A stretch of DNA of 12,529 bases, from UHGV virus genome UHGV-1994978. One strand, 5' to 3'. The position numbers and the translations under genes are program-made. The notes beneath the pieces are model-generated. The model made no database searches. It worked only from the letters and a program-made list of their open reading frames with translations, and had not been told where the DNA came from. Positions 4,220-7,822 of the stretch are shown in pieces; positions within the stretch are counted from its first letter, which is position 1; every line of letters begins with the position of its first letter. Origin of the DNA: a virus.

Positions 4220-4620
4220 TGAAAAATCTACACAATGAAATTATGAATATCATTCAGTACGCCATTGATAACCCGTATCAGTTTGGAGATAACGATTGCA
4301 ATATTATTGTATTACGTATTATCGATTTAATTAATGGTACTACGCACTTAGCAAATCGTGAATATACAAGCATACAGGAAGGTATAGCAGGTCTAAAGGC
4401 TGAAGGATGGAATCATACAGGGGAGATAGTTGAACAGTACTGTAACCCCGTACAGGTCGTTATAGACGGTGATATATGGCTGGATCCTGATAACCCTTTA
4501 ATTATGGCAGTGGTTGTATCAGGTCGGGTACTTGGAGTGAATGAAAGCCATGATGGGTTTGAACTTCATCCAAAACCAACGAATGGAACATTTTATAGAG
4601 TAAGGAAACACAATGGGTAA
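4219..4620 (+). CDS. putative tail assembly protein with NlpC/P60-like domain (lambda gpK C-terminal-like)
   Basis: GDNDCNIIVLRII has the NlpC/P60-type catalytic Cys context and His residues follow (ESHDGFELHP); directly upstream of and overlapping the J-like gene; weak similarity judged by eye. Confidence 0.45.
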   Translation: MKNLHNEIMNIIQYAIDNPYQFGDNDCNIIVLRIIDLINGTTHLANREYTSIQEGIAGLKAEGWNHTGEIVEQYCNPVQVVIDGDIWLDPDNPLIMAVVVSGRVLGVNESHDGFELHPKPTNGTFYRVRKHNG

Positions 4621-6392
4621 GAGTTTAGGGGGCTTCTTTGGAGCTATCATAACTGCGGTAATTGTCGCGGCTGCCGTTTACTTTACTGGCGGTACAGCAT
4701 TNNNNNNNNNNNNNNNNNNNNNNGGGGGCTGCTGCGGGAGCTGCTTCACTGGTGGCTACATCAATGTTGGGGCAAATCGGCGTAAGCGGTTATGGGGATG
4801 TGTCGGACTCATTAAGCCGAAGTACTTCCCCAACTACGGGATTACCTGTTATCTATGGCGGTGAGTTGCCACATAAAAACGGGGTATCAGGCGGTTCATA
4901 CGTACTGACAGGTTCAATTGTGTCATGGTACAACGTACCGAATAGTGATTCTCAATATCTCTTTTCAGAACAGGCTGTAGCATATGCGGGTACTGAAAAG
5001 AATATTCTACAGATCTATATCGATAACGAACCAGTCTTAGCCGTACCAGTTACACAAGATGGCATAGTACCGAAAGCCAGTATTGCGGCAAAGTATCAGG
5101 AATTTCTACAATTAGAAGTACGCTTTGGTGGTGATTATACCAGTACTAAAACGTTAGCCAGCCAATATGCAGGGCCAAAATGGACTGATAAATTTCTTGG
5201 TAAAGGTATTGTTAGTATCAGTGCGGTTATCAAGAAAACACAAAAATCATTAGAAAATAATATTCTCGTTAATGATCAGTTTGCTATGACAGTTGAAATG
5301 AAAGGGCAGCGTATATTTGATTTGGTGAATGGAAGCATTAAATCAAGTAGTAATCCACCATCGATTATCTATGATTACTTAACAAATAAAACTTATGGGA
5401 TGGGTATTGATCCCGCAATGATTAATCTTGATACCTTCAAAGAAACAGCAGCGTATTGTGATGCTTTCGAGTACTACGCGAATGGTGCGATCAGTTATCA
5501 ATCAAGCTATAAAGAAAACATAGAAAATATCTGTCAATCATTTGGCGGTATTATGTATGTTCACGCCGGACAGATTTGTATTACGACAGACCGTAAAACA
5601 GTTTCAGTAGCGTCATTTAATGAATCTAATATGGTCGGTGCGGTACAGATTTCAACCAGTGGCGGTACTGACTACTTCAATGTGGTTGATTGCAAATTCA
5701 CTAACCCTGAATCAATGTACACCACGGATGTAGTACGCATACCTTCAGATATCACCGTTGATGAAGCCGTTCGGCAAGACGGGCAGGTAATCGCACTTAG
5801 TCGTGATTACAGTTGGTCATATGATCCTGATGTCATCGCTAAGATGGCAAACATTGATGTACTCAAGGCAAAGTATGCTTTACGTACTATCAGCTTTACC
5901 ACGTCCGAAGGATGGGATCTCAAGGTTTGGGATGCTATCAATGTCAGTAATGCCGAATTGAATATCTCCGGTAAATTTAAAGTACTGAACAAGGACATTG
6001 CTACCGATCAAGAGAATGTAGGCTATGTAACGCTAACCTGCGTGGAAGCCCCTGACCAGATGTATGACGGTGTAGATCCGGGCATATGGTCGCCGGGTGG
6101 TGTGATTAACTTCCCTGAACTTACTGTTAAGGCACCAACGAATCTACAGGCAGTACGTAAGGGCAACACTACCAACGGTTCTATCATTGATTTGACCTGG
6201 ACGGCTTCAGAAGATCCGTACCTACGGGGCTATTATGTTTACTACAAACTTCACAGTGACAGTACATGGACATATGCGGGGCAAACTGGCGTACAGAAAA
6301 CCACTTATGAACTGTTTGGATTGTCTGACACTGCAAGCTATGACTTTGGGGTAGAGGCGTATACAATCTTGGTCTGGTTTCGCAGCGTGTAA
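4613..6392 (+). CDS. tail tip / host specificity protein (lambda gpJ-like), N-terminal two thirds; the ORF-track 4662..6392 is the post-gap frame
   Basis: ATG 4613 with AAGGA upstream; Gly/Ala-rich hydrophobic start; [33 protein letters not shown] resembles the gpJ Phage-tail_3 region (...YGMG...QYCD); FN3-like segment near the end. Confidence 0.75.
4702..4723. other. assembly gap or masked region (22 N)
   Basis: Run of N in the sequence; the reading frame differs on either side of it. Confidence 0.95.
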
Positions 6393-6649
6393 CACTTAAC
6401 GGAATAGTACCGACTTACAACTTTGCTTTACCTGCCGTAACTGGCGTAGTACTGGCAAATCGTACTGAATCAGTTTTAATCACTGATGCACCTGATTTTA
6501 ATATCGCATGGGATTTACAGAAGAACTTAAGCGTTAATGGTCGCTCGTATTCTGATTACTTCAAGTACTACATCATTAAAATCTATAACGGTACAACCCT
6601 TGTAGATACTTTCTATACGCAAAGTAATAGTTTCAATTTCGCTCTTGCG

Positions 6650-7822
6650 ATGAATCGTTTAAAAGTACGTAAACCAACTATTGGTATTATCGCACAGGGA
6701 TTTAATGATGGAACGTATTCACAGGAAGTGAAAATTACAGTAGAAAACAAACAATGTGGATTAGTACAAGGCGTATCATTCACTGGTGGTTTTGGTAATT
6801 TATTTGCTTCATGGACACAATCAACTGAACGTGATTATGCTGGTGCTGTTATCAGTATTGTTAACGGGAATACCAGCCGATTGTTTACCAGTTATGCACC
6901 TGAATTCGACTCAGTACCAAACATCGTTGATGGTGAATATAAGGTTAAGATGGGATTCTTTGACGTATTCGGCACGGACAATATTCAGTACTGTCCAGAG
7001 CAGACGATTAGTATTAACAGCAAATACCAGTTCACAGAAGAAGATGCAGATGCGATAAACGGTATTCTTGATCTCGATGACCGACTAACAGAGACGTTAG
7101 AAAACGCCGTCAATGAATCGAACGAGTACACCAATACCCGTGTTGATACATTGAAAAACACCGTAGACGGGAACACGGCAAGTATCGGTACGCTTACACA
7201 GACAGTAGCGACTAACAACACAGCACAATCACAGGCCGTCACACAGCTACGTAGTGATGTGAATGGGCAGATAGCTACCGTTAACCAACAGATGAGCACA
7301 AAGGCAACTGCAAGCACAGTAGACAGCCAGTACTCTCTATCCGTAAATGCTAATGGTACAGTTGCAGGCATCCGGCTAGTTGCTTCTTCAGGAACGGCTA
7401 CAAACTCAGCTTTATATGTTGCTGCTAACAAGTTTATTGTGTCCGGTACTGATGCGGCGACCGTGGGCGGTACTGCACCTTTCGCTATTGTTAACGGTAC
7501 TACTTATCTCAAAACTGCCATGATTCAGGCGGCGAGTATTGGTACTGGTTATATTGCTGATGCCGCTATTACAAACGCTAAGATAGCTAACTTAAGCGTG
7601 AATACGGCTAAAATCGCTGATGCAACTATTACTACGGCGAAGATAGCCAGTACTATTCAATCAACTAACTATGTTGCAAATACTACAGGCTGGCAAATCA
7701 ATAAAGCCGGAACTATTTTGATTAATGGTAGTGGCGGTACTGGTCGCATGGTTATCAGTAATAACATCATTCAAATTTATGATAATAATAATGTGTTACG
7801 TGTACGCATGGGATTGTGGTAA
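6650..7822 (+). CDS. tail tip / host specificity protein (gpJ-like), C-terminal part; frame is open from 6344 and probably continuous with 4613..6392
   Basis: [23 protein letters not shown]...[12 protein letters not shown] and the repeated [32 protein letters not shown] region resemble the gpJ C-terminal half; no start codon in this frame between 6344 and 6650. Confidence 0.75.

Follow-up and report, generated by a model that had tools for sequence, protein, structure and literature searches.

Cryptic prophages of Escherichia coli, for example, Rac, DLP12, e14, and Qin, decay by IS insertion, by deletion, and by point frameshifts. We compared with them a 12,529-nucleotide stretch of DNA from the UHGV virus genome UHGV-1994978 (hereafter the window, meaning the whole stretch that was analyzed), and find that it resembles them in having lost morphogenesis genes to an IS-associated deletion and in carrying a frameshifted structural gene, with no difference in kind. 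As judged from sequence comparison, positions 4613-7822 are very probably a J-type tail-tip gene of an E. coli siphovirus-type prophage remnant, one that has become a recent pseudogene through the loss of a single A and whose second apparent break, at a run of N, reflects only the length given to an assembly gap. The inactivation of the tail-tip gene here is ordinary prophage decay.

The region 4613-7822 corresponds to a single tail-tip gene with fn3 and Phage_Tail_Tip domains, assigned by PHROG to "central tail fiber J". The repaired protein (P0151, see below) matches this family (PHROG 31) over residues 223-1067 (E = 3.2e-61, 208.5 bits), and in this sense the likeness to J proposed in the first-pass annotation holds, but the similarity to lambda J itself is weak. 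Common to both proteins are the Phage_Tail_Tip domain (PF09327), which is strong and scores 72-75 bits (cut-off 22) whether the 3' fragment or the intact protein is searched, and, marginally, the fn3 domain and possibly Phage-tail_3 (PF13550); the two genes also hold the same place in the tail module, which in intact relatives comes after the tape measure, distal tail, and small tail-tip genes. The Phage-tail_3 match of the window's 5' fragment scores only 24.4-24.5 bits (cut-off 23), compared with 147 bits for lambda J, and at E <= 0.01 this domain is absent from the matches of the full-length proteins P0001 and P0151. Direct comparison with lambda gpJ by BLASTP gives 23% identity over 145 aa of the hub region (E = 2e-4), and P0151 does not contain the FNIII-A_GpJ, Ig_J, Ig_J_second, and Ig_GpJ_C domains (PF24801, PF24421, PF24489, and PF12421), all four of which are found in lambda J at 134-247 bits. 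Unlike gpJ, the tail-tip protein has a hydrophobic, glycine- and alanine-rich N terminus, and its Phage_Tail_Tip match ends ~23 residues short of the C terminus. The motif Y-x-F-x-V-x-A-x-N-x-x-G-x-x-S, which had been described as a lambda J pattern, is present in the repaired protein at residues 574-588, but a regular-expression search did not find it in lambda J; it lies in the stretch that Pfam scores as fn3, and we read it as generic for FN3, not as a hallmark of J.

Sequence matches to solved structures are confined to the other end of the protein. The C-terminal ~240 residues (828-1067), which belong to the portion lost through the frameshift, align to PDB entries 7z4b_EA ("putative tail tip fiber protein"), 9l9p_S, and 9ze4_N ([quoted passage not shown]), and to the F2-pyocin tail fibre 25vf, with E values from 1e-14 to 1e-6. 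For the N-terminal 500 residues, no solved structure matches by sequence.

We identified 187 homologues of the tail-tip gene, the full-length members of which are single proteins of 1067-1100 aa that are up to 98% identical, in agreement with the earlier proposal of one gene of about 1070 codons. Every full-length homologue is read in a single frame, and on this ground, together with the otherwise identical intact loci described below, we rejected two naturally separate genes. In the intact relatives L022-L026 the gene order is tape measure protein (TMP; 736 aa, phrog_13674), distal tail protein (185 aa), tail protein (207 aa), DUF6950 protein (133 aa), and the 1067-aa gene; from that module the window keeps only the J-like gene, the DUF6950 gene, and a 60-codon stub (Table 1).

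Alignment with six intact homologous loci reveals a single indel, the absence of one A at 6362/6363, which changes TATAACAAT to TATACAAT (TAT-ACAAT) in the codon for Asn587, within the final strands of the FN3 domain (residues 505-592; a marginal Pfam fn3 match). Frame 0 consequently runs through nine out-of-frame codons (TILVWFRSV) to a stop at TAA 6390-6392, and the reading that starts at 4613 ends after 590 codons when translated with the gap filled, while frame 2 is open from 6346 to the TAA at 7820-7822. The longest ORF with a start codon in the 3' part (6650-7822, 390 aa) begins at an ATG 95 codons downstream of the shift, and no Shine-Dalgarno-like sequence is found ahead of this ATG. 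Without a slippery sequence at the shift site or a ribosome-binding site for the first in-frame ATG (6650), the C-terminal 480 residues, including the central-fibre domain, would not be made in useful amounts.

Table 1. Coordinates of the features in the window, in order of position
Feature	Position	Strand	Details
Large serine recombinase gene, 3' end	1..489	+	644 aa in relatives; truncated by the start of the window rather than by a lesion
Early gene, 156 aa, IS-truncated at ~codon 137	2404..2853	+	Frame enters the IS by 38 nt, giving a 149-aa ORF
ISSen4, IS3 family	2816..4036	+	orfA 2887-3150, orfB 3174-4007; Pfam HTH_Tnp_1, rve, rve_3
207-aa tail protein gene remnant (phrog_2048), last 60 codons	4037..4219	+	IS-truncated
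DUF6950 tail-tip module gene, intact, 133 aa	4219..4620	+	PF22262; shares its last 8 nt with the J-like gene
5' fragment of the J-like gene	4613..6392	+	Hydrophobic N terminus, Phage-tail_3 hub region, most of one FN3 domain; 590 aa with the 15-nt gap
Assembly gap, 22 N	4702..4723	.	Represents 15 nt (AGCCGCGATTGGCTG); together with the flanks these encode L-A-A-I-G-W in frame
1-nt deletion site	6362..6363	+	One A of the ancestral TAT AAC AAT (Tyr586-Asn587-Asn588) lost; alignments with L001-L006 and L022/L023
3' part of the J-like gene, shifted frame	6365..7822	+	Residues 588-1067, then TAA TAA; last FN3 strand, middle region, coiled-coil-like stretch, Phage_Tail_Tip central-fibre domain

The same broken allele recurs in assemblies of runs and metagenomes that were sequenced independently. 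A 590 + 390 aa split is found in the Logan assemblies of ERR434453, ERR12526638, SRR32281070, SRR12660603, DRR658796, and DRR658787, as well as in an ENA metaSPAdes contig and in the NCBI E. coli record HGY6084891/2; on a contig of ERR13369519, which ends at that gene, the 590-aa product alone is called. The 590-aa product is also called in contigs L007, L009, L011, L012, and L035, and the exact 390-aa product is found on at least 23 contigs. Positions 4524-9572 of the window are base-for-base identical to six frameshift contigs, the N-run excepted. An exact 40-mer spanning the deletion has one match in metagenome_contigs (L029, discussed below) and none in genome_contigs or viral_contigs.

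An intact allele that is otherwise the same is found as well. Contigs L022 and L023 are the same as positions 4030-12529 of the window except for the N-run and the missing A, and with the A put back and the gap filled in, the gene agrees with that of five assemblies (L022-L026) at 3204/3204 nt. The repaired protein occurs exactly as P0151, as E. coli EHV4722712.1, and in other records (17 contigs in total), which bears out the earlier proposal that a single indel near 6363 divides the gene. Over 8.5 kb there is no other difference between the broken and the intact allele. We did not find the same split in diverged homologues; the gene is broken in other lineages at other positions, through independent events that leave products of 793 + 285, 151 + 913, and 914 + 147 aa.

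Two interruptions of the reading frame had to be told apart, and the first-pass annotation had left open whether they were draft-quality sequence or a genuine inactivating mutation. Each answer holds for one of the two: the N-run for draft quality, the deletion at 6363 for mutation. Reading starts in frame 2 (position mod 3 = 2) with the ATG at 4613, and the sensible reading beyond the N-run is in frame 0, so that the frame change across the N-run is seen as had been stated. It is not a real break, because the 22 N replace 15 in-frame bases in otherwise identical assemblies: the 15 nt AGCCGCGATTGGCTG occupy the gap in six frameshift-lineage and two intact-lineage assemblies, with both sides identical. 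Comparison of these assemblies thus shows the frame break at the N-run to be draft-quality sequence that exists on paper only, produced by an arbitrary gap length, and the frame change itself carries no information. We consider it unlikely, but by no means negligible, that a second real indel, in the hydrophobic N-terminal region, lies under the N-run and that the gene is broken twice. The metagenome contig L029 (OBVD01000657.1), the only other contig that shares the orientation of the IS in the window, has 14 nt at the gap position and reads GCGA-TGGCTG instead of GCGATTGGCTG within exactly that stretch, giving ORFs of 54 + 542 + 390 aa; a 542-aa product is also recorded for a MAG TPA contig (DAP74893/DAP74894, Caudoviricetes sp.) from which the window probably derives. 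However, a 542-aa call is equally expected if a gene caller restarts at the first ATG after the N-run, the coverage of L029 is only ~10x, the length of 22 fits neither 14 nor 15, and 15 bases, in frame, are what the other six assemblies of the frameshift lineage contain. That the missing A at 6363 is itself a sequencing or assembly error in a draft contig, the real gene being intact, is highly improbable. The window does hold an assembly gap, and it is probably a low-coverage metagenome scaffold, as its products match DAP74893/DAP74894 ("MAG TPA ... Caudoviricetes sp.") and its sister scaffold has a coverage of 10x; yet at least 23 contigs share the deletion. Their runs have several ERR, SRR, and DRR accessions, and their names and sources point to different assemblers (Logan, k-numbered ENA contigs, a NODE-named ENA scaffold, and an NCBI isolate record). 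Moreover, other samples treated by the same kinds of pipeline yielded the intact allele between identical flanks, and the deletion site is an AA dinucleotide with no homopolymer run. Judged by this agreement among assemblies, the deletion at 6363 is a genuine mutation.

A genuine deletion could still leave a functional gene if the ribosome shifted by -1 at the site (...AYTNLG...), or if the 590-aa and 390-aa parts acted as two subunits. Programmed frameshifts occur in phage tail genes, for example, G/GT of lambda, and both halves of the gene are still free of further stops or indels. Within 6300-6420, however, there is neither an X XXY YYZ heptamer nor a homopolymer of 5 or more, and programmed frameshifting is therefore unsupported. 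No homologue has the deletion, not even the alleles that agree with the gene at all other bases, so the two-frame arrangement is not a conserved feature. The break also lies inside the FN3 domain, the 3' part would have to start at the distant ATG 6650, which has no Shine-Dalgarno sequence, and the partner tail genes are deleted. The absence of further damage is explained by recency, because the two alleles show no other differences over 8.5 kb. We regard a functional split as hardly credible and retain the reading of the gene as a recent pseudogene.

The surroundings of the gene indicate the state of the prophage as a whole. Positions 1-2816 of the window are 99.96% identical, without gaps, to positions 8171-10986 of L015-L020, in which a 644-aa Resolvase/Recombinase/Zn_ribbon_recom gene adjoins yeaG (prkA). 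The suspicion that this recombinase is disrupted by an IS, as in strain 14EC007, was dropped, as the window is collinear with intact loci over 1-2816. Homology to L015-L020, in which the 156-aa early gene is intact, stops at 2816, where ISSen4 begins; this element is 99-100% identical to sequences that many E. coli genomes carry under the annotation "IS3-like element ISSen4 family transposase". Homology to intact loci resumes at ~4030-4037, within the 207-aa tail protein gene. In comparison with L015 and L022, ISSen4 stands in place of ~15.4 kb. This segment comprises the genes for capsid-protease, S74 tail fibre, major tail, tape measure, and distal tail, together with 70% (the 5' part) of the one that precedes DUF6950. 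The DUF6950 protein is identical in intact and broken loci. Four further contigs, among them L021, have the ORF at the left junction, and the right junction is seen in >10 contigs. All frameshift contigs that reach upstream show the end of an IS or a further insertion, and all of the intact-allele contigs shown have the complete run of tail genes upstream. In a megablast search of the whole window against complete E. coli genomes, H2 matches in pieces over 4030-7823, but the J region searched alone has no match there; neither result enters the argument.

Phage sequence meets ISSen4 at one and the same nucleotide whichever way the element points, and a single insertion with a single later deletion is therefore too simple a history for the locus. 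Such junctions are not explained by simple homologous recombination; they might reflect site-specific targeting by the IS.

As the prophage is a remnant, the gene is a recent pseudogene and not a working host-range determinant. The latter label, given to it earlier, has little meaning at a locus from which the head genes and most tail genes were removed with ISSen4. The frameshift would have no effect on phage host range, and would be one more step in the neutral decay of a cryptic prophage. For annotation, this means that the ORFs deposited apart as "hypothetical" or "tail" proteins (590 or 542 aa, and 390 aa) are the two parts of a single pseudogene, and that a contig labelled as phage ("Caudoviricetes sp.") in a metagenome catalogue appears to be a non-viable E. 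coli prophage remnant, which should be kept out of phage genome counts and host-range inference. Beyond annotation the importance of the locus is small, but it does provide a clean, datable example of decay, in which one base has been lost and 8.5 kb are otherwise unchanged relative to an intact allele that still circulates.

The prophage adjoins mipA, and in relatives the serine recombinase lies next to yeaG. No match to the gene was found by megablast in a phage genome collection, and the element thus has no close relative among deposited phage genomes; members of the prophage family are likewise absent from the 50,697 deposited phage genome records searched. Tentatively, the window may belong to a group of temperate siphoviruses that have a large serine recombinase, lie between yeaG and mipA, are absent from the deposited phage records searched, and have repeatedly been dismantled by IS elements in E. 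coli, although we hold this somewhat short of an even chance. Among deposited phage genomes, the best full-length match to the protein is in Escherichia phage DCP80, at 28.5% identity. A Shigella host, which had been suspected from the IS load, was dropped as a candidate, since the named records with exact products are from E. coli.

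The tail-tip gene (window 4613-7822) is read in three pieces. The frame opened by the ATG at 4613 is readable up to the single N-run of the window (22 N, 4702-4723), beyond which the only sensible reading lies one base out of register; this second frame ends in TILVWFRSV followed by TAA (6390-6392), and a third stretch, open from 6346, continues uninterrupted to TAA TAA at 7820-7825. We thus recovered the frames of the first-pass annotation, which had reported frame changes at the N-run and near 6363. Its proposal of one gene of about 1070 codons agrees with the full-length homologues, which are single proteins of 1067-1100 amino acids from E. 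coli and other Enterobacterales (identity up to 98%) named “phage tail tip fiber protein.” Aligning the conceptual fusion of both halves to J-like proteins, the check it had suggested, gave 187 homologues from a database query and, for the repaired protein, a match to PHROG 31 “central tail fiber J” (E = 3e-61, residues 223-1067).

In the 5' part, Pfam finds an fn3 domain and, marginally, Phage-tail_3 (24.5 bits versus a cut-off of 23); in the 3' part, Phage_Tail_Tip matches strongly (74.8 bits). The gene order in intact relatives, namely tape measure (736 aa), distal tail protein (185 aa), 207-aa tail protein, 133-aa DUF6950, and tail-tip gene, is that of a siphovirus tail-tip module. With lambda J itself there is only limited similarity, a BLASTP match across 145 aa in the hub region at E = 2e-4, and the FNIII-A, Ig_J, Ig_J_second, and C-terminal receptor-binding domains specific to lambda J are all missing from the repaired protein. 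The fibronectin-like motif previously ascribed to lambda J is present in the repaired protein (residues 574-588) but does not occur in lambda J. The best full-length match among deposited phage genomes has 28.5% identity, and the match to solved structures is confined to the C-terminal fibre domain. Two hydrophobic Gly/Ala-rich stretches open the protein (residues 1-55, window 4613-4780), with nothing comparable in lambda J.

The first-pass annotation had left a choice between draft-quality sequence and a genuine inactivating mutation in the host-range determinant; we find one of these for each lesion. At the N-run, 8/8 otherwise identical assemblies examined carry 15 bases (AGCCGCGATTGGCTG), which with their flanking bases encode L-A-A-I-G-W in frame. 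The window has 22 N in place of 15 real bases, so the frame change follows from gap length alone, and this break appears to be a draft artefact. It is unlikely that the Ns conceal a second real lesion; in favor of one, the metagenome contig L029 (OBVD01000657.1, ~10x coverage), the only other contig with the window's IS orientation, has 14 bases there, a second 1-nt deletion turning GCGATTGG into GCGA-TGG (ATT to AT). The 5' part of its gene is thereby split into 54 + 542 aa (54 + 542 + 390 aa in all), and the 542-aa product is also on record for a “MAG TPA ... Caudoviricetes sp.” contig (24,296 nt) from which the window probably derives. The L029 deletion could be genuine, and hence a second lesion, or could stem from poor local read quality beside a G-rich stretch.

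The lesion near 6363 is of another kind. Against six intact loci (L001-L006, 96.7% identical), the gene has a single indel apart from the N-run. It is the loss, between 6362 and 6363, of one A of TATAACAAT, which takes a base from codon Asn587, in the final strands of the FN3 domain (residues 505-592). Two intact relatives, the MEGAHIT-style ENA contig L022 and L023 (GCA_048041655.1), differ from window 4030-12529 only at the N-run and by this single A; once the A is put back and the gap closed, the gene is identical to that of L022-L026 (3204/3204 nt), and the repaired 1067-aa protein is found exactly in the public collection (P0151; E. coli EHV4722712.1 and others, 17 contigs). The deleted allele is itself found in many assemblies. 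Six frameshift contigs match window 4524-9572 base for base, N-run excepted, and by exact look-up the 390-aa product of the ORF at 6650-7822 is on at least 23 contigs. In the loci shown, the 590-aa upstream product stands beside it in Logan assemblies from six runs (ERR434453, DRR658796, ERR12526638, DRR658787, SRR32281070, and SRR12660603), while in a seventh (ERR13369519) the contig ends at the 590-aa gene. The upstream ORF is 542 aa in an ENA metaSPAdes contig that also has the split, and both split products are present in an NCBI E. coli record (HGY6084891/HGY6084892).

Pipelines of the same sorts recovered both alleles, and the site, an AA dinucleotide, is not a homopolymer, which makes a sequencing artefact very unlikely; the deletion is a derived and recent change. 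We also considered a programmed frameshift or functional two-part split and rejected it. No X XXY YYZ heptamer occurs in the overlap (6346-6392), no run of five or more identical bases in 6300-6420, and no Shine-Dalgarno sequence before 6650, where the 3' frame has its first ATG, 95 codons downstream; the two-frame arrangement is in no full-length homologue, otherwise base-identical alleles included, and the break falls inside a folded domain. We conclude that the deletion at 6363 is genuine and recent, that it is specific to this lineage, and that it inactivates the gene in a prophage already defective.

Features of the prophage remnant and its surroundings
Feature	Position	Strand	Details
ISSen4 element (IS3-family)	2816-4036; junctions 2815/2816 and 4036/4037		99-100% identity to annotated copies; Pfam HTH_Tnp_1, rve
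Missing ~15.4 kb			HNH, DUF6998, another IS3-family element, capsid-protease fusion, S74 tail fibre, major tail protein, tape measure, distal tail protein
Mu-like insertion	contigs L034 667-2948; L008 1-716; L010 1-734 (window about 4405-4524)		
Lysozyme gene	within 9168-10107	minus	Pfam Phage_lysozyme
149-aa gene after lysozyme gene	within 9168-10107	plus	precomputed Pfam match SegE_GIY-YIG (homing-endonuclease-like)
Small ORF of cassette	11296-11511	minus	
Small ORF of cassette	11525-11773	minus	

Left of ISSen4, window 1-2816 is collinear with and 99.96% identical to the early region of loci L015-L020, which adjoins a 644-aa large serine recombinase itself abutting yeaG; the prophage's right end adjoins mipA-yeaE-yeaD. 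ISSen4 interrupts a 156-aa gene near codon 137, and to its right phage homology restarts within the 207-aa tail gene, of which the last 60 codons remain. The nearly identical L015/L022 prophage has ~15.4 kb that are absent here, with ISSen4 in their place. Judged by this gene content, the remnant would be unable to build a particle, so the frameshift would be without consequence for host range. The left junction is also in four other contigs and the right one in more than 10. Every frameshift contig reaching upstream has an IS end or a further insertion, and every intact-allele contig shown has a complete upstream run of tail genes.

The same phage nucleotide is abutted by the IS in two orientations (window 3993-4036; L029 1-78; L007 2294-2338; L034 254-298), with the orfB-proximal end in the window and L029 and the orfA-proximal end in at least 10 other assemblies. 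The 6363 deletion is present with both configurations, which cannot be converted into each other by homologous recombination within the IS. In L007, unrelated DNA lies on the far side of the IS.

Decay of this gene is not unusual and is of a kind well known for defective prophages. Judged from protein products, it is broken elsewhere in other lineages, as 793 + 285 aa (49 and 44 contigs), 151 + 913 aa, and 914 + 147 aa, which suggests repeated independent pseudogenisation; the splits lie at ~789 in E. coli (P0152/P0122), ~121/155 in Shigella sonnei and E. coli (P0139/P0158), and ~909/921 in Scandinavium (P0160/P0126). IS elements abound in the related prophages of complete genomes. Two related remnants occupy the same chromosomal place in E. 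coli 14EC007 (NZ_CP024131.1 2151828-2167459) and AREA_C483 (NZ_CP123310.1). The 14EC007 remnant retains an intact 1067-aa gene (~75% nucleotide identity to the window), with one IS3-family element splitting the recombinase and another ahead of the DUF6950 gene; that of AREA_C483 has lost the tail-tip gene entirely, ISSen4 being joined there at window position 8909. DRR658787 and DRR658796 have a Mu-like transposable prophage inside the DUF6950 gene of the same remnant, with HTH_Tnp_Mu_1 (Mu-type transposase N-terminal domain) and, beside it, a small HTH gene (HTH_35) at one end and a Caudo_TAP gene at the other, and with ~120 nt apparently lost between its two junctions.

Downstream, the lysozyme gene and the 149-aa gene are kept in all relatives. 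Window 11267-11778 is a variable cassette with conserved flanks, occupied in L001-L004 (96.7% identical) by a 227-246-aa plus-strand ORF and a 69-aa minus-strand ORF.
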